Below, in pieces: positions 9,570-22,858 of a stretch of DNA of 64,000 nucleotides (position 1 is its first letter; each line of letters opens with the position of its first letter). Source of the DNA: a bacterium (GTDB lineage: Bacteria > UBA8248); NCBI GenBank assembly GCA_965202625.1, contig CBDBBI010000010.1, positions 2,240,001 through 2,304,000 of the forward strand, in the 5' to 3' direction. The notes under the pieces are model-generated. The model was given only the letters and a program-made list of their open reading frames with translations, ran no database searches and was not told the origin of the DNA. The translations under genes and the position numbers were made by a program.

Positions 9570-11084
9570 ATGAACGGTGACGTGCTCCAGGGTTTCTATC
9601 TCGCTCTCGCGCCGACGAGCATCCTGGCCACGGCCTTAGGCGCCCTGCATGGCCTCATATGCGGCATGATGCCGGGATTGACGACGAGCGCGGGCATCAT
9701 CATCCTTTTCCCCGTCACCTTCATTCTGGAGCCCACCACGGCCGTGGCACTTCTGCTCGGCGTCTTCGCGGGCGGAATGACGGGGGGAAGCTTCGCCGCC
9801 ATCCTCATCAACATTCCGGGCTCTCCGTCGGCTTCGGCCACCACGATGGATGGATACCCCCTCACCCAGAAGGGAGAGGCCGGCCGCGCGCTGGGGATTT
9901 CCATCGTCTCCAGCTTCACCGGCGGTGTTTTCAGTTTCTTCTGCCTCATGCTGATCGCTCCGCAACTCACGAAGGTGGCCCTCCAGTTCCAGGCGGCCGA
10001 CCTTTTCGGGCTCGTATTCTTCGGAATGTCGGTCATATCCGCCTTCGCGGCGAAATCGCTCGCAAAGGGGCTGTTGTCCACCTTCCTTGGCCTCATGATC
10101 GTGACGGTGGGGATGGATCCCCTCGTGGGAACGGCTCGCTTCACCTTTGGCAGTGCGAACATGCTCGCTGGAATCCATTTTATCCCCGCCCTCGTGGGCC
10201 TCTTCGCCATTCCGGAGATAGTGGCGAACCTCGCGGAAGGGAACATTCGCTCGGTTGCCTCAAGGTTCGGTCGCGTGTTGCCCAGTTGGGAGGACATCAA
10301 GCGAATCCGGCTTCCGGTGGCTATTGGCTCTGTCGTGGGTACTTTCGTCGGCATCCTGCCGGGAGCAGGTGGTCCGATAGCGGTTTTCGTGAGCTACGAC
10401 TACGCCCAGAAGGCCAGCAAGGAGCCGGAGCAATTCGGCAAGGGTTGCGTCGAGGGAGTGGCCGCTCCTGAATCGGCGAACAGCTCCATCGCCGGCGGCG
10501 CGCTCATTCCGATGATGACGCTCGGGATTCCTGGTGATCCGATAACCGCCATTCTCATCGGCGCCTTGCTGGTCCATGGAATGGCACCGGGACCGCTCCT
10601 TTTCGTGGAGCAGGGTTCTTTCGCGTTTTCCGTCCTTTTCTCGTATTTTATCGCGATATGCAGCACGGCCCTGGTCGCGTTCTTGGGGCTGCGGGTCATC
10701 GTGAAACTGCTGTCCATCCCCCGATCTCTCCTTCTGCCGATCATCGTCGCCCTGTGTGTTTTGGGGACGTATGCGCTGCGAAATTCGTTCTTCGATATCC
10801 ACGTCATGTTCTTTTTCGGTCTCGTGGCCCTCACCTTCAAGTGGCTCGACGTTCCCGTGGTGCCGCTCCTGCTCGCGCTCGTGCTGGGACGCCAGCTCGA
10901 GGAGCATTTGCGGGTCGCCCTCGCCGCGTCAAGAGGCGACGTTTCGGTTTTCTTCACCTCTCCGTGGTGTTTGTTTTTTCTCTGTCTCTCGTTCGTCTCG
11001 TTCGTCTGGCCGTTCTTTCTTGAATGGAGAATAAGGAATAGAGCGGCGAAGCAAGAGTCCCCCCCTGCGCCTTCTTCCGCTTAG
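9570..11084 (+). CDS. tctA: TTT large membrane subunit TctA
   Basis: G.MPGL, NIPGSP....T..DGYP, APESAN and TLGIPGD motifs. Confidence 0.95.
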   Translation: MNGDVLQGFYLALAPTSILATALGALHGLICGMMPGLTTSAGIIILFPVTFILEPTTAVALLLGVFAGGMTGGSFAAILINIPGSPSASATTMDGYPLTQKGEAGRALGISIVSSFTGGVFSFFCLMLIAPQLTKVALQFQAADLFGLVFFGMSVISAFAAKSLAKGLLSTFLGLMIVTVGMDPLVGTARFTFGSANMLAGIHFIPALVGLFAIPEIVANLAEGNIRSVASRFGRVLPSWEDIKRIRLPVAIGSVVGTFVGILPGAGGPIAVFVSYDYAQKASKEPEQFGKGCVEGVAAPESANSSIAGGALIPMMTLGIPGDPITAILIGALLVHGMAPGPLLFVEQGSFAFSVLFSYFIAICSTALVAFLGLRVIVKLLSIPRSLLLPIIVALCVLGTYALRNSFFDIHVMFFFGLVALTFKWLDVPVVPLLLALVLGRQLEEHLRVALAASRGDVSVFFTSPWCLFFLCLSFVSFVWPFFLEWRIRNRAAKQESPPAPSSA

Positions 11085-15082: not shown

Positions 15083-16045
15083 ATGCAGAACAAAGGTTGG
15101 CTGACTTGTGCGCTCACTTTCCTCGCCCTTGGCGTGTGCGCTGCACCCGCCTCGGCGGCATATCCGACGAAGGCGGTGGAGATGACCATCACTTTCAAGG
15201 CGGGTGGAGCGGCGGACATCTCTGGCCGCACCGTGGCGAAGGCGGCTGAAAAAGTGCTCGGGCAGCCGATAGTCGCCGTGAATCGCCCAGGTGCCGGAGG
15301 GACGATCGGCTTTGCGTATGTCAAGACCGCGCCGCCTAGCGGCTACAAGATTGGCTGGCTTTCGGCCTCGATTTTAACCGGCACGAACATGGGGCGCCTC
15401 CCCTACGATTATGACGCGTGGGATTACGTTTCCCGGGTCGTGTTCGAGGCGACCGCCATCGTCGTTCGGAGCGACTCCCCCTACAAAACGCTTCCTGATC
15501 TCGTGGAGGCGGCCAAGTCGAAAACCCTGAAAATTGGAAGCGCCGGTTCTGGCAGCTTTACGAGGCTGACTGCCTCGGCGCTGGCGAAAAAGGCGGGCTT
15601 CAAGTTTCGCCACATCCCCTTGGGAAAACGCCGCGTGCCCAGCCTCCTTGGTGGAGAGGTCGAAGCGATTTCGGTACATCCGCCTGAGGTCTTGGCCCTT
15701 CATAAGGCGGGCAAAGTTCGAATGCTGGCCGTTTCCTTCCCGAAGCGGCATCCTGCTTATCCGAACGTTCCACTGTTCAGCGAGCATGGGTGGGACGTTG
15801 GTTTTTATCAGTTCAGGGGTCTACACGTTCCCAAGGGAACGCCCGCCGAAGCGGTGCAAAAGCTCCACAAGGCCTTCGAGACGGCTTCTCGGGATCCAAA
15901 GGTTCTGGCCACCGCCGAGAAAAGAGGTTTTCTGGTTTCTTATATGGGGCCAAATGAATTCCCGGGCTTCGTGGCTGAGCAAAACGCACTGATAAGAGAC
16001 ATTGTGGTTTCTCTGGGATTGGACAAGAGAAAAAAGAAAAAATAA
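15083..16045 (+). CDS. tctC: TTT substrate-binding protein TctC
   Basis: Signal peptide, YPTK, AGG.AD and NRPGAGG motifs. Confidence 0.93.
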   Translation: MQNKGWLTCALTFLALGVCAAPASAAYPTKAVEMTITFKAGGAADISGRTVAKAAEKVLGQPIVAVNRPGAGGTIGFAYVKTAPPSGYKIGWLSASILTGTNMGRLPYDYDAWDYVSRVVFEATAIVVRSDSPYKTLPDLVEAAKSKTLKIGSAGSGSFTRLTASALAKKAGFKFRHIPLGKRRVPSLLGGEVEAISVHPPEVLALHKAGKVRMLAVSFPKRHPAYPNVPLFSEHGWDVGFYQFRGLHVPKGTPAEAVQKLHKAFETASRDPKVLATAEKRGFLVSYMGPNEFPGFVAEQNALIRDIVVSLGLDKRKKKK

Positions 16046-16096
16046 ACTTCATCGCATCTTTGCTGAGAGCAAGAGGCCATAGGGGATCCGGCGTTC

Positions 16097-16585
16097 ATGA
16101 TGGAAAATGACGGGGAAATCCGGCGATTGCGCGTTGGGCGCACCATCGTTCCGGCTCTTCAGATGGTTTTTTGTGTTGGGTATGGTTTCCTCATTCTTGA
16201 GTTGCCCCAGGAGCACGGAGAGGAATATCCTTCGGGGCCTTCTTTTATGCCTTGGTTGTGGGTGTTGTTGCTCATCACTCTCACTTTGCTCGAAATCGGC
16301 GCGACCTGCTTTGATGTGCGCGAGAAGAGGGCGCGTGTCTCCATCGCGCGCAAGAGCGTTCTCGACGCCCTGCTCCTCGTCTTGTTGTTGACGGGATTCG
16401 CGCTCTCTATTCAGCGAATTGGTTTCTTCTCCGCCGCCGCGGCGTTTCTCACCATCTCCACCTGGTGGAGTGGAGTCCGCGCCTGGGGAATCCTTCTCCC
16501 CTATGCCATCATCTTCGCCGCGTTAGTGAACTATATTTTTCACCATGTTCTTCAAGTTCCCTTGCCCCAGGAAGGGCTCTTCTGA
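16097..16585 (+). CDS. tctB: TTT small membrane subunit TctB
   Basis: Hydrophobic, GPSFMP and L.VPLP.G motifs; position between tctC and tctA. Confidence 0.85.
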   Translation: MMENDGEIRRLRVGRTIVPALQMVFCVGYGFLILELPQEHGEEYPSGPSFMPWLWVLLLITLTLLEIGATCFDVREKRARVSIARKSVLDALLLVLLLTGFALSIQRIGFFSAAAAFLTISTWWSGVRAWGILLPYAIIFAALVNYIFHHVLQVPLPQEGLF

Positions 16586-16587
16586 AG

Positions 16588-18078
16588 ATGAACCTCCTTG
16601 TGGATGGCCTCGTCCATGCACTTGCGTTGAAGCCTTTTTTGTTCGCCGTCTTGGGGAGTTTTTTGGGAATCATATTCGCGGCTATTCCTGGCCTCACGGT
16701 GAGCATGGGAATCATTCTCCTACTGCCTTTTACCTTTCACATGGCCGGCGCGACAGCAATGAGCCTTCTCGTAGGTGTTTTCGTCGGCGGAATGACGGGG
16801 GGGAGTATCTCGTCCATCTTGCTCAACATTCCGGGCAATCCCGCCGCTATCGTCACGAGTCTGGACGGATACCCGCTCGCCCAGAGCGGGAAGGCGGGAA
16901 TCGCGCTGGGGGTCGCTTTCTTCTCCAGTTTTTGGGGCGGGTTGTTCAGTCTCGTCTGCTTAGCGACCATCGCGCCTCAGTTGGCGGATTTTGCCCTGAA
17001 CTTCGGCGCGCCGGAGCTGGCGGCGCTGGTCTTACTGGGGCTTTGCCTCATTTGTGGGTTCGCCCAGACATCAATGAGCAAAGCGCTTATCTCGGGCACC
17101 TTGGGTTTGGTCTTCTCCACCGTCGGCATGGACCCGATTGACTCGATACCGCGTTTCACGTTTTCCGTCGTCCAGATTCAGCAAGGCGTCTCTTTTCTAC
17201 CAGTGATGATCGGACTTTTCGCGGTGCCTGAAATCATATCGGGCATGCGCGGCTCCGCCGTTTCTTTGCCGTGTTTCTCCACGCGCCTGCGGGATTTGTT
17301 GCCCGCGCCGGGAATCTTCCTTGGACTTTGGAGGACGCTCGCGCAATCCTCTCTCATCGGAACGGCCATAGGACTTTTGCCCGGAACGGGAAGTGCCGTC
17401 GCCGCCGTGTTGAGTTACAACACGGCCCAGCGCCGCTCCGCGGAGCCGGAATCGTTCGGCACGGGAAAACTGGAAGGCGTGTCCGCGCCCGAGGCCGCCA
17501 ACAGCGCCATGACGGGCGGCGCGATGATCCCGATGCTCACGCTGGGAATTCCTGGTGATCCTGTCACTGCCGTGATGCTCGGCGCACTCACGATCCAGGG
17601 TCTCGCCCCAGGTCCTCTCTTGTTTGAGACTCACAGCGGCTTTGTATTTTCCATATTCGGGTCTTTTTTCATCGCCTTGTTTTTGACCATCATCATTGCG
17701 TTGCTGGGCATCCGTTTGTTCGTCCAGGTGTTGCGCGTGCCCCCGGGACTCCTTTTTCCAAGCATCGCTGTGTTTTGCGTCGTCGGGGCGTTTGCGCTTC
17801 AGAACAGCTTTTTCGATGTGTTTTTGATGATTGGGTTCGGACTGCTCGGCTTTTTTATGCAAAAATTTGATTATCCCATCATGCCTTTGTTGCTGGCGAT
17901 CATCTTGGGTCCCGTTTTTGAGAAAAACGCCAGAGTGTCGCTTATCCTCTCGGATGGCGACCCCACCATTTTCGTCCGCAAGCCGATCAGTTTGGTGTTT
18001 CTGATCGTGTCTTTGCTCTACCTCATCAGCGTTTTTCTAAAACGAACCTCCTTTTTGCGGAAGCGAGAGCCCGCCTGA
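16588..18078 (+). CDS. tctA: TTT large membrane subunit TctA (start refined to ATG 16588)
   Basis: AIPGL, NIPGNP...DGYP, APEAANSA and TLGIPGD motifs. Confidence 0.95.
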   Translation: MNLLVDGLVHALALKPFLFAVLGSFLGIIFAAIPGLTVSMGIILLLPFTFHMAGATAMSLLVGVFVGGMTGGSISSILLNIPGNPAAIVTSLDGYPLAQSGKAGIALGVAFFSSFWGGLFSLVCLATIAPQLADFALNFGAPELAALVLLGLCLICGFAQTSMSKALISGTLGLVFSTVGMDPIDSIPRFTFSVVQIQQGVSFLPVMIGLFAVPEIISGMRGSAVSLPCFSTRLRDLLPAPGIFLGLWRTLAQSSLIGTAIGLLPGTGSAVAAVLSYNTAQRRSAEPESFGTGKLEGVSAPEAANSAMTGGAMIPMLTLGIPGDPVTAVMLGALTIQGLAPGPLLFETHSGFVFSIFGSFFIALFLTIIIALLGIRLFVQVLRVPPGLLFPSIAVFCVVGAFALQNSFFDVFLMIGFGLLGFFMQKFDYPIMPLLLAIILGPVFEKNARVSLILSDGDPTIFVRKPISLVFLIVSLLYLISVFLKRTSFLRKREPA

Positions 18079-18325
18079 TCCACCGGCCTTTTTCCAGGGT
18101 GTTTCAAGGGCGTTTATCGGGGGTATTTTCAGCGTTGCAAAGGCTGGTGAATCGGGGGGGATTTCGGGAGCGTTTATGGAGGGCGTTTTCGGCCTGTCGA
18201 TGCGCCTTTGAAGCAAGGGGTTTTCCGGGGTGCTGCGGGCGCGGGGCGCTCAAGTGGAGGAGCGGCGGTATCCGCCAGTTCGCGCTTCGTGAATTGCGGG
18301 GTTTTCAGGGTCGAGGCGGGGGTGC

Positions 18326-18845
18326 TCAGGCGTCCTCGTCTTCCTCTTCCTCGTCATCGGGTTCAAGGACGTGGGGAAACTTCGCGTAGAATTCCTCATC
18401 GCTCAGTCCCATGACCTCGTCATAGACTTGGCGCGCCTCGGTTCCGGGCCTGAGCGCGGCACTGGTGAGGGCTTGGTCCTGCATCTTCTTGGCGAGGTTC
18501 GAGATGCCGTGGGTCATGTTTGCCGTGGCCGCAATCACGGCCTTGTCCCACTGCGCCTCCGTGAACATCAGCAGTTTGACGTATTCGCGCGCCTCCGCGT
18601 GCACCTCTTCTTTTTCCGCATCGCTCATGCCGGCGTATTTGCAGCCGGGCCGCCTCCAGGGCTTTTTTCTGGCTCTCGGCGTCCTCCTTCAGGAATTTTG
18701 AGCCAGTCGCTCAATGTCGGCGACGAGTTCCTCTTCCGTTTCATGCCCTCGCCCAGACGTGCGACCCTGTCTCGTCTCCGTCCCGATACTGACGGCTATT
18801 CGTGCGCCGGCTTGGCGATGTAGGTTCCATGATCTCCACCGCCAT
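18326..18845 (-). CDS. Acidic hypothetical protein downstream of MuF, candidate immunity protein; intact ORF 18628-18326, 5' part apparently frameshifted
   Basis: AAGGAG RBS and TGATG coupling at 18847-18843. Plausible coding fragments (ETEEELVADIERLAQ, FLKEDAESQKKALEAARL) in shifting frames lead into MSDAEKEEVHAEARE...PDDEEEEDEDA. Confidence 0.55.
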
Positions 18846-21404
18846 CAGTCGATCTCCTTCATGTAGATTTTTAATTGCGCCGTCTTTCGGGCTTAATCCT
18901 TTCACCTCAAACCTCGTCCCGGAGGTGAAGAGGACCTCGCGCTCTCCGGGGAAAGCGGAAGCCCCGTTGATGCGCTTGCCGTGTCTGGATTGTACCACAA
19001 ATTCATGGGGTCCCCCAAACGCCGCCTCTCCGCTGTGGGAGGTGCTGAAAAAGCCCCGCTCCTCAAAAATTCCCCCCTTCTCGATTCCGTCAAGAACGTC
19101 ATCGGGCAGCGTCGTCCCGCGCTTCACCTCTCCGGCGTAGTCGGGCAGCTTGGCGAGGGCGTCCTTGAGGGTTTTTTCATAGTCGCGCACCGCGGCGATC
19201 TTCTTCTGGTCGCGGGAGCGCAGGGCGTCGTTCAGGGGCCCGTAGCCCCACTTCGAGTCGCTGGTTGTGTAGGCGTAGCGGGCCGCCATCTCTATATCGC
19301 TCAGGCCGTGGCGCTGCCCGTCCGGCATCCTGCCCCTGGCGGCGGAGAGAAAAGAGCGGAACTTCCGCCCCATCTGCTTTTTGAAGTTGCGGTGGGGCGC
19401 GGGGACGTTTTTGAGCGCTTCCATCGCCTTGCGGACTCTGGGTGCGATCTCGTTCTCCAGCAGGCGCGCGCGCCTTCGCAGGAGGTCGAGTATCGCGTCC
19501 CTGTCCGCTTTCGGGACGCCCTTCACGGCCGGAACGAGGTCGGCGAAGTCGTTCGTGCGCTCCCCGAGTTTTTTGATGTCCTCCATCTGGCGCAGGGCGC
19601 GGCGGCCGAGTTCGTCCGCGTCGATGAGGTCCGCCTTCTCGAATATCCGCACGTATGCGGGGTTGATGGAAGGGTTGCTGAAGCCGTCCCACTCGGCGAT
19701 TTTATGGAGGCGGTCCAACGGCTTGCGCCCCGCGCGTGCGCGGAACAGGAGGGAGCCGCCCTGGTCGATGCGGACGACCTTCTTTCCCGCTATGACGACG
19801 TTGTCGAGTTTGAGGCCCACCGCGTCCCAGTTGGCGAGCCAGACGTCGGCGGCAAAGCCATCCAGCACCTTGTTCGCGTGCGCTTTCGTCAACCTGTTCT
19901 TGCCGAGGGTTCCGGTGTTCTCGACGATCTCGCTGGCGATGGAGAGTTTCTTGCCCTCGCGGACGAGGGCGGAGGTCGGCGCCTCAAGCCCCAGCTCCCG
20001 ATAGATGCGGTTCGCCGCCGCCTCGGAGTAGGCCTGGGCGGGGTCGTCGTATTGCTTGACGTAGCGCTCCACCCCGTCCGCGCCCCGATAGAGTCCCCCC
20101 GGATTGCTGCCCTTCGGCCCCGAGATGCGCCGCTCCAGTGCGACTGCGGCGTCGAGTTCCGGTATGGCGCCCTTGCGCACCAGTTTGCCGTCGACGATCT
20201 CGGCCAGTTCCCGCTCCGCCGCCTCGAGCTCGTCCGCCGCCGCGCGTCTGAGCGACGTGAGATGAGTCGTGCGCCCATCCTCGGACGCCCGCACCGAGGC
20301 GCGCCAGAGCTTTTTGTCCTCCTCAAGGAAGGCGATCAGCGCCCTGTCGCTGTCGGCCGCCTGAAAGGCCCGGCCCTCATTCAGCATCCGCTGGACGCGG
20401 GCGTAGTCCTTCGCGCCCAGGTCCGGATGCCGCTTGCTTTGCTTCGCCGCCGTCTCCGCGCTCAGGCGCACAGCGCGGGATTTTATGCCCATCGTCCTGG
20501 CGATGTCGTCTCCGAGCGCTGCCACGGGCCAGTCGCCCGCGCTCTTGCCCGCAAGGTGCAAGCCAAACGCACGCCCCCCTTCGCCCTCAATGAAGTCCTG
20601 AGCGACGGCGGGCGCAAGGTCGGGCGCCGCGTCCATCCTGGAGATCGCGCGCTCCAGGGGGTCTTTCACCACGCCGGCAGGGGCACCACCCGCCTGTGCG
20701 CCCACGTTGTGATCCCAGCCGGAGTCGATTCCTTCCGGAACGCGGACGACCTCTCCCGTCCGGGAGTTCACGCGCGCCGACTTGCGGCGGCTGGGGCGCC
20801 GCTCGCTCGGTGCGAAGCCGAACTCCTCAAGGTCCGCATCCGAGAGCTGCATCACCGTGCACCGGCAGCCCCACCCGTTGGGCGGATAGTGCGTGCGCCA
20901 GAAGGGATCGTTCACAGGCAGGACGACGCCGTGCCAGGAGGCGTGCGCCGGTCGGGTCGAGGCGTCAAGAACCGCCGAGTAGCGCAGCCAGGGCGCGTTT
21001 TGCTTCTCCGCCTGTATGCGCCGCCACCGCCCGGCGGCGTAGGAGGTCCGCAGGTTCGTCTCGTAGATGACCCGCAACCGATGCGACGAGCCCAGCTGGA
21101 CGACGCGCGTCTTCCCCGTCAGCGGGTCTTTCATCTCCGCACGACCCCACCACCCGCGCTTGCGAAGCAACGGCTCCAGCGCATCCTGAAAATCCGCGAG
21201 AGAGCTCCCCTCGATTATCGCCCGATCCACCTCCGCCCGAACGTCGCCGAGAACGTCCATGCGCATCGCCTTCGCCACGCTGAACGCCCGCGCGTGCTCC
21301 GCAGCCTCCACGTCGCGCCAGTCAAATCCCACCGCGTAGCCCTTCGCGCGAAAAAAATCCACCGCCTCCCCAGGCGGAACGTCTAAAATCTCAGGCGCAG
21401 GCAT
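18741..21404 (-). CDS. MuF (Mu gpF/SPP1 gp7-like head morphogenesis) polymorphic toxin with PBECR-like region, HipA/PI3K-like kinase and ADP-ribosyltransferase
   Basis: MuF motifs AF.VAK, GWWG, RL..IY.TN..T.Y.AGR, TRP.H and YPPNGWGCRC. Kinase motifs GPKGSNPG, YVK, SEAAA, NWD..G...DN and IDQG. ART motifs YT...GY..LN.ALR, KRG, FFSTS and EREVLF..GTRFEV. Confidence 0.88.
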   Translation of the reverse strand: MPAPEILDVPPGEAVDFFRAKGYAVGFDWRDVEAAEHARAFSVAKAMRMDVLGDVRAEVDRAIIEGSSLADFQDALEPLLRKRGWWGRAEMKDPLTGKTRVVQLGSSHRLRVIYETNLRTSYAAGRWRRIQAEKQNAPWLRYSAVLDASTRPAHASWHGVVLPVNDPFWRTHYPPNGWGCRCTVMQLSDADLEEFGFAPSERRPSRRKSARVNSRTGEVVRVPEGIDSGWDHNVGAQAGGAPAGVVKDPLERAISRMDAAPDLAPAVAQDFIEGEGGRAFGLHLAGKSAGDWPVAALGDDIARTMGIKSRAVRLSAETAAKQSKRHPDLGAKDYARVQRMLNEGRAFQAADSDRALIAFLEEDKKLWRASVRASEDGRTTHLTSLRRAAADELEAAERELAEIVDGKLVRKGAIPELDAAVALERRISGPKGSNPGGLYRGADGVERYVKQYDDPAQAYSEAAANRIYRELGLEAPTSALVREGKKLSIASEIVENTGTLGKNRLTKAHANKVLDGFAADVWLANWDAVGLKLDNVVIAGKKVVRIDQGGSLLFRARAGRKPLDRLHKIAEWDGFSNPSINPAYVRIFEKADLIDADELGRRALRQMEDIKKLGERTNDFADLVPAVKGVPKADRDAILDLLRRRARLLENEIAPRVRKAMEALKNVPAPHRNFKKQMGRKFRSFLSAARGRMPDGQRHGLSDIEMAARYAYTTSDSKWGYGPLNDALRSRDQKKIAAVRDYEKTLKDALAKLPDYAGEVKRGTTLPDDVLDGIEKGGIFEERGFFSTSHSGEAAFGGPHEFVVQSRHGKRINGASAFPGEREVLFTSGTRFEVKGLSPKDGAIKNLHEGDRLMAVEIMEPTSPSRRTNSRQYRDGDETGSHVWARA

Positions 21405-21422
21405 CGCCGCACTCGCCCTAAT

Positions 21423-21520
21423 CTACCCACCCGCCTCGTTCTCCGAATCCATGAGTCCCGCACGTCCGGAAAGAGCCGCGGAGAACGACAGCCGCGTCAG
21501 ACGATCTACCACTTCCGCGA
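21423..21520 (-). pseudogene. 3' stub of a Mu gp29/DUF935-like portal gene
   Basis: Reads EVVDRLTRLSFSAALSGRAGLMDSENEAGG* just upstream of muF, resembling the L..L.R..F.A.L.GR C-terminus of Mu-type portals; there is no start codon. Confidence 0.5.
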
Positions 21521-21612
21521 GGAAGCAGGAAATATATCGAATTTTTCCTGAAAATCTCTCTTTTTTATTGTGAAAAACGGAAAATAAGTATATCTTTTTT
21601 TGTGTAATATAG

Positions 21613-21641
21613 ATTATATGAGTATTAAACGCTCATATAAT
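21613..21641. promoter_or_regulatory. HAIR-like (HspR-type) inverted-repeat operator upstream of hsp20
   Basis: ATTATATGAG-TATTAAACG-CTCATATAAT; the core TGAGT-N7-GCTCA resembles HAIR (CTTGAGT-N7-ACTCAAG). Confidence 0.6.
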
Positions 21642-21696
21642 TGGGCCGGGGGGTGCGGGGTTCCCCTAAATTCACTTTCATCATAAGGAGCGGAAA

Positions 21697-22113
21697 ATGA
21701 CCAGTTTGATGAGTCGCGCTTCGTTTCACGATGTGCTCAACCGTATGCTTGAGGACTCCTTCGCCAGGCCTTTCCGCCAGGACGCCGAGGAGGAGATTCT
21801 ACCTATCGACATCGCACAAACGGATAAGGATGTCGTCGTGCGTGCGTCGCTTCCGGGGTTTAGGAAAGAGGATATCGACCTTCGGATTGAAAAGGGTGTT
21901 CTCTCCATCAAGGCGACGAAACAAACGGAGAAAGAAATTGAAGATGAAAAATACTATCGCCGCGAGCGTTTCATGGGCTCTTTGAGCCGGCGGGTCGTTT
22001 TGCCTGGTATCGTGCAGAACTACGAATCGAGTGCGGAACTCAAGGATGGCGTCCTCACGCTTCGGGTACCCATAGCCGAGGTGAGCAAACCGAGGCAGAT
22101 TGCGGTTCAGTAG
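21697..22113 (+). CDS. Hsp20/alpha-crystallin small heat-shock protein
   Basis: PIDI..T, A.LPG..KEDI, RRER..G...R...LP and A.LKDGVLTL.VP; AAGGAG RBS. Confidence 0.95.
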   Translation: MTSLMSRASFHDVLNRMLEDSFARPFRQDAEEEILPIDIAQTDKDVVVRASLPGFRKEDIDLRIEKGVLSIKATKQTEKEIEDEKYYRRERFMGSLSRRVVLPGIVQNYESSAELKDGVLTLRVPIAEVSKPRQIAVQ

Positions 22114-22858
22114 ATCGAGCGTCCCAGGCCGGTCCCCGGCGTCAAGCCGGGGACCGGAAAACGTCGGGTATCCGCACTTTTCGCTTCGCCGAGGAAACAC
22201 ATGGACGATGCTCGGAATTCGCGCAACGCCCATGTGCCGCCACGACCTGCCTTCCACTCATATTCAGTCGTCATCACGCGGCGACATGTGTCTATCCATG
22301 ATTCGTATCTTCTGTCTGCCTCGCACCGCCTGGTTGTCTGGTGAGTGAGGTGCTTAACTTAGCGCGCCCTCTGATCAGATGGTGGATATGGCGACTGTGC
22401 CGTGAGGAAGTTTTGCTTTGATCGCTGTTTTGTATCTTTGCCGGGAGGGAGGAAATGGCCGCTCGGCTTTGAACGCGCAGGGCGCGGTTCCCCCTATTAT
22501 TTCCTCGTCAAGGTGAGGTGAGTGGGTGTTTCCGCTTTTTCTACCGTGTCGAGGGTGCGACAGGCTTCGACGATTTTCGTGAAGCGCCGCGCCGGAATGG
22601 CGCGGCCGGGGACGCTGGTTCACGGACTGATGGATTCTCCATAGGTTTTGAGGGAAACGTATTTTGAGGTCTGGAACGCCGCCTGAAAAATGCTTTATGG
22701 CCAGGAAGCGATTCCGCTTAGAGAGTTCTCGCTTTTGGCGAAGGGGGTTTTTCGCCTCCCTTCGTTCAGGCGGTGAAGCGGAAATCTTCCCTCTGGCAAG
22801 AGAAAGCGAGACGCTCCTCTTTCCCGTTGCGTGATTCTGAAAGGCTCAGCAGATAGGC

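Follow-up and report, generated by a model that had tools for sequence, protein, structure and literature searches.

Introduction

Genes for MuF toxins have been found exclusively in phages and prophages, and 89% of them have a short open reading frame (ORF) directly behind them (Jamet et al. 2017, PMC5576092). The proteins are described with single toxin domains (PMC5576092, PMC11699363); Bxa of Bacteroides, for instance, is an arginine ADP-ribosyltransferase (ART) that is neutralized by adjacent immunity proteins, and immunity genes adjoin Apk2 as well (PMC11699363). In polyvalent proteins a MuF or portal domain shares its chain with several effector domains, and packaging and injection are predicted for these proteins (Iyer et al. 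2017, PMC5512222). We have analyzed a 64,000-nucleotide stretch of bacterial DNA (the window) in which a single gene encodes a protein of 887 amino acids (aa), P0001, with an N-terminal MuF domain and, toward its other end, two putative enzymes in tandem, an atypical kinase-like domain and an ART.

Like the MuF polymorphic toxins Bxa, Apk2, and EFV, P0001 has an N-terminal MuF domain, a C-terminal enzymatic toxin, and a small ORF directly downstream. It differs from them in its two tandem enzymes, the kinase-like one going unmentioned in the main texts of PMC5576092 and PMC11699363, in having no ADP-ribosylhydrolase gene nearby, and in the position of the window copy outside any prophage. The kinase described in polyvalent proteins is of the Ser/Thr/Tyr type but truncated, having lost the whole C-terminal subdomain, and has a conserved His...Asp motif; it occurs mainly in Verrucomicrobia, Chlamydia, and Bacteroidetes. 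The ARTs of polyvalent proteins are of the H-Y-D type, R-S-E ARTs being said to be absent from genuine polyvalent proteins (PMC5512222). In contrast, P0001 has an R-S-ExE ART behind a different kinase. The Alt protein of phage T4 is a head-packaged, injected R-S-E ART that acts on host proteins (PMC5512222); unlike P0001 it has no MuF domain, and a search with the P0001 kinase domain returned no T4-like phage. A 2022 survey of viral NAD and ADP-ribose systems describes ARTs of the Alt/VIP2 type fused to MuF and, in its main text, mentions no fused kinase (PMC9503650).

P0001 is a variant of these known MuF and polyvalent effectors, and the pairing of a kinase with an ART is undescribed in the literature that we found. 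The sequence-only reading of the window, which preceded this work, knew of no characterized example of the architecture, and none emerged from the main texts of PMC5512222, PMC9503650, PMC3482391, PMC5576092, and PMC11699363, although supplements or figures might list it.

Our preferred reading, which we hold to be probable on the sequence comparisons and models set out below, is that P0001 is a Mu-type MuF head protein carrying a kinase–ART cassette, that its native role is that of phage cargo accompanied by a small neutralizing protein, and that the copy in the window is a stranded relic. Natively, within the head modules of Mu-like and other tailed phages, the enzymes would be held in the capsid by the MuF part and would pass with the DNA into the next host. 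There the kinase, to judge from its fold and invariant residues, would transfer phosphate from ATP to host targets, and the ART, on the same kind of evidence, would transfer ADP-ribose from NAD+ to arginines in proteins of the host; both activities may bend host physiology early in infection. A small acidic protein that travels with the cassette would neutralize one of the enzymes in the producing cell. For the family as a whole, the best reading is of cargo that tailed phages package in the head and inject, a two-enzyme effector of the MuF/polyvalent kind with a small neutralizing protein in the Mu-like clade.

MuF-fused toxins and polyvalent proteins are thought to be injected with phage DNA; only three or four have been tested (EFV, Apk2, and Bxa), each with a single enzyme. 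The kinase and ART form a concrete pair with which to ask, in culturable phages, what phosphorylation adds to ADP-ribosylation in host takeover, and the cassette can end up alone in a chromosome, where a bacterium could re-use a phage weapon. The family is of moderate interest, and the locus mainly as an example of a stranded cassette.

Domain Organization

The ORF is intact and encodes one protein with zero internal stops (Table 1). Its MuF domain scores 86.4 bits against Pfam Phage_Mu_F (PF04233; cut-off 29.6) and 55 bits against the NCBIfam minor capsid protein family TIGR01641 (cut-off 39.65); PHROG 220, "minor head protein and DNA pilot," spans residues 5-377, and the NCBIfam model for XopAI falls far under its own cut-off. 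The protein has the layout of a MuF toxin, that is, a MuF domain and a C-terminal toxin domain followed by a small ORF; with at least two effector domains on one chain it also has that of a polyvalent protein, the element context of which is lost in this copy. The order of domains proposed in the sequence-only reading (MuF, a PBECR-like region, kinase, and ART) is supported by Pfam for MuF and the ART and by AlphaFold (AF2) and fold searches for the kinase, and its motif coordinates were all correct.

Table 1. Coordinates and makeup of the MuF–kinase–ART gene, its surroundings, and related loci (positions are those of the window unless a contig is named; GC, guanine plus cytosine)
Feature	Position	Strand	Details
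Long ORF with MuF, MuF-C-like region, atypical kinase-like domain, and ART	18741..21404	minus	887 aa, P0001
MuF (Phage_Mu_F) domain	20850..21245	minus	residues 54-185; Pfam, TIGR01641, PHROG 220
MuF-C-like region (PBECR/MuF_C a lead only)	20187..20525	minus	residues ~294-406; BLASTP to Helicobacter prophage MuF
Atypical protein-kinase-like domain	19329..20177	minus	residues ~410-692; AF2, Foldseek, VIA-align, invariant residues
Kinase motifs			Gly-rich loop 429-437, K450, E461, N525-W-D527, N535, D547 of IDQG
Gly-rich loop G429-G437	20094-20120		
N525-W-D527...D534-N535	19800-19832		
R-S-ExE ART	18870..19316	minus	residues 697-845; R762, S787-T-S, E821-x-E823; Pfam and Tre1
E821-R-E823-V-L	18930-18944		
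Conserved small acidic ORF, candidate immunity/inhibitor protein	18326..18628	minus	100 aa
Foreign island between tctA and hsp20	18086..21570		synteny with same-genus genomes, GC
Copy 2 of MuF–kinase–ART	C10:2074340-2076513		L002, L018, L019; 185 kb away; broken into three reading frames
Locus L003			kinase–ART alone
Locus L004			portal, MuF–kinase–ART, protease, virion protein, major head protein; true head module
Locus L007			TerS, TerL, portal, MuF; kinase–ART as a separate gene; scaffold, major head, sheath
Locus L008			portal–MuF–kinase–ART fusion, 1286 aa; reduced remnant
Loci L010, L012			fragments
Locus L011			TerL, portal, MuF–kinase–ART
Loci L028, L029			closest viral contigs, 60% identity; TerL, portal, 701-aa MuF–kinase–ART, small ORF

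Kinase-Like Domain

The first enzyme lies in a region that is unnamed by Pfam, PHROGs, NCBIfam, and PADLOC. A search with residues 400-700 returned 107 protein clusters, mostly of MuF-X-ART proteins of ~690 aa, and in an alignment of 68 relatives K450, E461, N525, D527, G530, N535, D547, G549, R555, and R645 are invariant; six of these (K450, E461, N525, D527, N535, and D547) are invariant also in alignments of 33 and of 14 relatives, and D534 varies. An AF2 model of residues 400-700, built on the 68-relative alignment, has a mean predicted local distance difference test score (pLDDT) of 93.4 and a predicted template modeling score (pTM) of 0.91, and shows the bilobal fold of a kinase.

Foldseek comparison of the model with the PDB gave only kinases in the top rows, with probability 1.00, among them CtkA of H. 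pylori (template modeling score ~0.5), actin-fragmin kinase, and RIPK2. VIA-align, which is independent of Foldseek, again placed CtkA first (Z 16.4, root-mean-square deviation 3.6 over 217 residues), ahead of CotH (Z 14.4), HipA (Z 13.9), MavQ (Z 13.6), PI4K-II alpha (Z 13.3), actin-fragmin kinase (Z 11.8), and the Fam20 and Rio kinases (Z 11-12). The sequence-only reading had called this domain HipA/PI3K-like and had named the lack of a kinase fold as grounds for abandoning the idea; the model shows such a fold, and the label is a fair one. All five kinase-type residues are conserved: K450 would serve as the ATP lysine and E461 as the helix-C glutamate, with D527 as the catalytic aspartate, N535 as the metal asparagine, and D547, in IDQG, as the DFG-like aspartate.

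CtkA (JHP940) is a Ser/Thr kinase encoded on the conjugative element tfs3 of Helicobacter pylori (PDB 3akj-3akl; PMC5536186). It is the best structural match and is, like the P0001 domain, borne by a mobile element; it differs in being a stand-alone protein, and the two are only ~15% identical, with no match at the sequence level. In HipA, CotH, PI4K-II alpha, MavQ, and actin-fragmin kinase, the catalytic-loop Asp/Asn and the IDxG-type metal Asp correspond in kind to those of P0001, whose catalytic loop is distinct in reading N-W-D...N. The usual spacing in kinase catalytic loops is D-x-H/K-x-x-N. The loop N525-W-D527 of P0001 has no His, and in the AF2 model the helices run on to residue ~692; because the His is missing and the C-terminal helices are kept, this is not the polyvalent-protein kinase of Iyer et al. 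(2017).

P0001 has no match to the HipA family (PF07804 and PF20613) at E values up to 1. A relative of 3416 aa with five kinase repeats (P0127) does match HipA_C (1.7e-18) and HipA_2 (6.5e-12), as summed scores only.

ADP-Ribosyltransferase

The second enzyme is the R-S-ExE ART that the sequence-only reading had predicted. Pfam places ART (PF01129) on residues 697-844 and ADPrib_exo_Tox (PF03496) on residues 775-839, both over cut-off, and a phmmer search of the PDB found Tre1 (6drh/6dre) with an E value of 2.7e-17 over residues 701-843, followed by XopAI, Vis, and Lmo0066. The Arg of RGTTLP, the S-T-S, and the E-x-E of P0001 are in register with those of Tre1 (6drh), and R762, S787, E821, and E823 are invariant in 33 sequences. 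Specificity for arginine is likely for an ART of this type. Tre1 itself, from Serratia proteamaculans, is a PAAR-linked effector of the type VI secretion system with an ADP-ribosylhydrolase as immunity protein; in P0001, by contrast, the ART shares its chain with MuF and a kinase and has as partner a 100-aa acidic protein of no family.

MuF-C-Like Region

Between MuF and the kinase lies a stretch that the sequence-only reading had called PBECR-like. A domain of this PBECR/MuF-C class following MuF has been described (Iyer et al. 2017, PMC5512222). The C-terminal domain (residues 279-394) of a 394-aa MuF protein from a Helicobacter Mu-like prophage, the gene for which sits between a Portal_Mu gene and a virion morphogenesis gene, is 30% identical to the P0001 stretch over 118 aa by BLASTP, and a tblastn search of phages with residues 236-430 matched two Helicobacter prophages. 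Look-alikes in the Atlas hold PBECR2, MuF_C, or PBECR3 with scores of 0.83-0.86, which are under the trust level and serve as leads. Given the Helicobacter homology and these leads, P0001 appears to be a full-length Mu-type MuF protein with a PBECR-class C-terminal domain to which the kinase and ART have been added. The homology to the C-terminal domain of a Mu-type MuF thus stands, with the PBECR label as a lead; residues 236-430 have zero Pfam matches, even at E 10 (PF18810, PF18812, and PF18819 included), and an AF2 model of them from a two-sequence alignment is unusable (pLDDT 46.3).

The stretch is missing from most relatives and from the second copy in the same genome. In a collection of 5.8 billion proteins it has, besides P0001, one homologue (P0231), and a search for proteins of near-equal length returned P0001 alone. 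P0231 is a stand-alone protein of 149 aa from another genome, the sole close relative of the stretch (48% identity), so the MuF-C-like domain also exists as a separate gene.

Distribution and Partners of the Kinase Domain

A HMMER search with kinase residues 425-695 over 1.84 billion cluster representatives found the domain in 4183 proteins at E <= 0.001, of which 2343 are at <= 1e-10 and 366 at <= 1e-30; 173 stretches in IMG/VR encode a relative. The architecture that the sequence-only reading had presented as without a known characterized example is therefore not rare: no characterized example was found, but the cassette is widespread. Partners were counted in 230 proteins, 165 of which have at least 170 residues after the kinase. 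A profile built from close ARTs detects an ART in 140 of the 230, and MuF is present in 83; an ART follows the kinase in 93 of the 165 by a plain profile and in 129 by a profile after six iteration rounds, which had not yet converged and could drift. Among 33 representatives, Pfam recognized 15 with ART, 12 with MuF, one with NUDIX, and one with a portal domain. The survey shows the atypical kinase fold to be one of the commoner cargo domains, usually placed directly before an arginine-type ART.

Kinase-domain proteins among the cluster representatives reach 3673 aa. Giant relatives (P0127, 3416 aa; P0119, 3673 aa; P0116, 2951 aa) carry several copies of the kinase domain and several ARTs per chain, and a Micromonospora locus (L014 3725-18886) has a single ORF of ~5050 aa containing the kinase domain.

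Twenty records of isolated phages carry the domain, including phages of Pseudomonas, Yersinia, Aeromonas, Escherichia, and Gordonia, mostly in genes annotated just as ADP-ribosyltransferase or hypothetical. Culturable carriers of the cassette are Pseudomonas phages Jeremy and Dolphis, Gordonia phage GodonK, and Yersinia phage fHe-Yen8-01. In Yersinia phage fHe-Yen8-01 it lies inside a 2146-aa "ADP-ribosyltransferase toxin" for which the depositors note association with the particle; a literature search on this phage gave nothing specific.

Phage Context of the Relatives

PHROG scans of eight related genomic loci revealed both head modules and remnants (Table 1). The gene occupies a portal-adjacent position within a head module in L004, L007, and L011, and likewise in the viral contigs L028 and L029; it does not do so in the window. 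In L008 and L009, which are remnants, a portal–MuF–kinase–ART fusion or an 891-aa form is accompanied by the small ORF and a neck protein amid genes that are not of phage origin. Among the 80 loci kept from the 173 IMG/VR stretches, MuF is present in 21, and homologues of head proteins of the L028/L029 type are recognizable in 17. Delivery in the capsid can fairly be inferred for the family from these head modules and from the depositors' note on fHe-Yen8-01.

Small Acidic Protein

The small ORF begins 112 nucleotides past the stop of the long gene in the window; in the second copy the two genes overlap, and the small ORF, intact and encoding 98 aa, is 81% identical to that of the window. Weaker relatives with a K-M-x-D-Q-A...L core occur in L003, L004, L006, L008, L009, L010, L011, L028, and L029, where they sit directly after the ART gene or overlap it. 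The ORF is kept in nine of the 12 close genomic loci (the window, copy 2, and L003-L012), missing from L005 (where the contig ends), L007, and L012, and it occurs in two of the 80 viral loci, which are the two closest. Its position matches that of the immunity genes of Bxa and Apk2 and of the small ORFs of Jamet et al. (2017). Most likely, judging from this position and from its conservation, the small acidic protein neutralizes one or the other enzyme inside the cell that makes them.

Several indels set the window gene apart from copy 2 in the tail after the ART, so that the window protein ends ~38 codons earlier, its four domains being unaffected. A 38-codon frame (18627-18743, minus strand) bridges the long and small ORFs, with ATGA overlaps at both ends, and is, by comparison with copy 2, a shifted remnant of the longer C-terminal tail.

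Genomic Location and Second Copy

Similarity to three genomes of the same genus ends at ~18085 and restarts at ~21571, so that the foreign segment is ~3.5 kb and holds just two genes; its GC content is 0.62-0.63, compared with 0.56-0.59 in the flanks. In these three genomes (L108/G002, L109/G019, and L110/G007) tctA and hsp20 are also neighbors, 1.6-3.75 kb apart. The gap holds a metE-like gene of ~380 aa in two of them, and in the third this gene is split by a methyltransferase-like ORF of 496 aa; by this comparison, the island has taken the place of the metE-like gene. The flanking genes are cellular: an aldehyde dehydrogenase, tctC, tctB, and tctA lie to one side of the island, hsp20 and an amidase to the other. 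The kinase domain was found in none of 40 related genomes, 22 of which belong to the same genus.

The genome is 99.7% complete by marker genes and has two MuF matches, the second of which belongs to the other copy of the gene. Half of a Portal_Mu gene precedes copy 2 and the small ORF follows it; its other neighbors (clamp loader and guanylate kinase) are cellular. Nucleotide identity between the two copies is 87% over a stretch that starts at the kinase, takes in the ART and the small ORF, and ends 240 bp farther on, whereas their MuF parts are only 70% identical, a pattern that looks like exchange of the kinase–ART–small-ORF unit as a cassette between different MuF backbones. On our reading, the window copy is a recently acquired relic, still intact, beside a second one that is already broken.

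A search of the whole genome found no match to Mu-like gpT, HK97 Phage_capsid, Terminase_6N, or TerL_ATPase, and 16 head and tail proteins of related prophages matched nothing beyond the half portal gene at a distance of 185 kb; these four Pfam families and 16 queries are the basis for the absence of head genes, and an unrelated capsid type would escape them. The sequence-only reading took P0001 to be a capsid-delivered virion protein, and a literal version of that idea, in which a resident prophage delivers it from capsids encoded by this genome, appears extremely improbable. It is in keeping with the MuF domain and with the contexts of the family, but no head, terminase, or complete portal gene is evident in a nearly complete genome, the neighbors are housekeeping genes, and the island is just 3.5 kb. 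Because no capsid, terminase, or whole portal gene was found, the window copy is not deliverable by the capsid of a resident phage. "Capsid-delivered" suits the family rather than this locus, where the neighbors (tctCBA, hsp20, and the amidase), the lack of detectable head and terminase genes, and the absence of the domain from the related genomes do not support it; on the same grounds, and unlike the described MuF toxins, the gene does not lie in a temperate phage or prophage.

Contigs of sponge metagenomes (among runs X4, X8, X9, and X10) hold most of 17000-22300 at 95-100% likeness. RNA-library contigs from one marine metatranscriptome study cover hsp20 and 18200-18950, including the small ORF and the ART gene's 3' end; one of them has 15 small gaps and is therefore from a variant or from copy 2. 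None of the RNA-library contigs aligned from X8-X10 covers the body of the ORF (19000-21400), which, for metatranscriptome contigs, is uninformative on expression. A DNA contig from X4 skips 20107-20870; the shorter arm at the joint has just 25 letters, and the contig may derive from copy 2.

Alternative Interpretations

In addition to the limited reach of the head-gene search, several observations weigh against the reading that we prefer, beginning with the kinase. No Pfam family exists for the domain, and a profile of 14 kinase domains found no kinase match among PDB sequences, so that the assignment rests on the fold and the invariant residues. Since its structural neighbors mix lipid kinases (PI4K-II alpha and MavQ) with protein kinases, the substrate may be a protein, a lipid, or a small molecule. 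Instead of being a protein kinase, the domain might phosphorylate lipids or small molecules, catalyze some other ATP-dependent transfer, or be a noncatalytic adaptor that positions the ART. This we regard as rather unlikely: it draws on the scores of the two lipid kinases (Z 13.3-13.6), on the fact that P0127, the multi-copy relative, reaches the APH and HipA models of Pfam, and on the lack of an assigned sequence family, but the best matches (CtkA, CotH, HipA, actin-fragmin kinase, and Fam20C) are protein kinases, and the invariance of K, E, D, N, and D speaks for catalysis.

The pairing with the ART is a second point of weakness. Among the more distant viral relatives, just 28 of the 80 loci have an ART behind the kinase within one ORF, and 39 have one on the same strand. 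Pfam applied to 36 proteins without a detected ART found NUDIX in five and a Zeta toxin, GNAT, DUF3626, and an intein in one each, and otherwise nothing. Because of the viral count and of these other partners (NUDIX, Zeta toxin, and GNAT), we consider the kinase-then-ART pairing frequent, ordered, and widespread, but not obligate. The same data bear on a different proposal, that kinase and ART perform steps of one reaction on one substrate, for example by a phosphorylation that primes or locks an ADP-ribose mark, or by action on an NAD-derived small molecule. The fixed order and closeness of the two domains in most close relatives are consistent with this, as is the identity of the other frequent partner, NUDIX, another enzyme of ADP-ribose and NAD; still, the kinase also occurs with a Zeta toxin, with GNAT, or with no recognizable ART, and the literature search gave no precedent for an ADP-ribose kinase. 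A kinase domain alongside ART and NUDIX in the plant effector HopAG1 was not confirmed, the text of Hulin 2023 (PMC9963460) naming ART and NUDIX only. We judge such coupled chemistry to be quite unlikely.

Two further points concern the locus itself. An intact ORF of 2.66 kb in a compact island could mean use by the host, and the small ORF, which our reading takes for a neutralizing protein, matches no family in Pfam, PHROGs, NCBIfam, PADLOC, or the Atlas. The island could be a domesticated module of two genes kept as a chromosomal toxin–immunity or anti-phage abortive system that works independently of any capsid. We think this unlikely. In its favor are the compactness of the island, with just two genes, the integrity of the long ORF while its paralogue is broken, the retention of the small ORF with the orphan copies of the window and L003, and the RNA-library contigs that reach the small ORF and the ART gene; these contigs come from a single study, however, and are no proof of transcription. 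No PADLOC model matches either protein, the absence of the kinase domain from all 40 relatives gives no sign of long retention, and a MuF domain for tethering to the capsid has no obvious use outside a virion. The window copy is either a young relic or a module that its host has begun to keep.

A more elaborate proposal would join these ideas: kinase, ART, and small acidic protein would be one conserved three-part module whose enzymes share a substrate, producing a composite phospho-/ADP-ribosyl mark or an altered NAD-derived product, and stranded copies would be kept as capsid-independent toxin–immunity or defense modules. This is speculative, and we consider it very unlikely. The reading of a stranded phage cargo gene remains the one that we prefer.

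Minor Features of the Locus

None of P0001, the small ORF, Hsp20, and the amidase matches a PADLOC model. A promoter scan of the locus gave one site, compared with 0.6 expected, and this lies inside the ORF; terminator-like sites number 12, compared with 5.2 expected, and none is informatively placed.

The gap between tctA and hsp20, which varies between species, may be a hot spot for foreign DNA. A tctA gene at 9570-11084, probably part of a second tctCBA set that starts at ~8011, lies a few kb from the tctCBA set at 15083-18078, and the genus is rich in tctA paralogues, with 5-11 matches per genome. A 73-nucleotide stretch at the island end (18086-18158) recurs at C10:2805586-2805657 (88% identity) and partly at C10:844288-844326; beside the first of these recurrences is a 40-nucleotide match to 20622-20661, within the long gene, and the sequence may be a small repeat involved in rearrangement.

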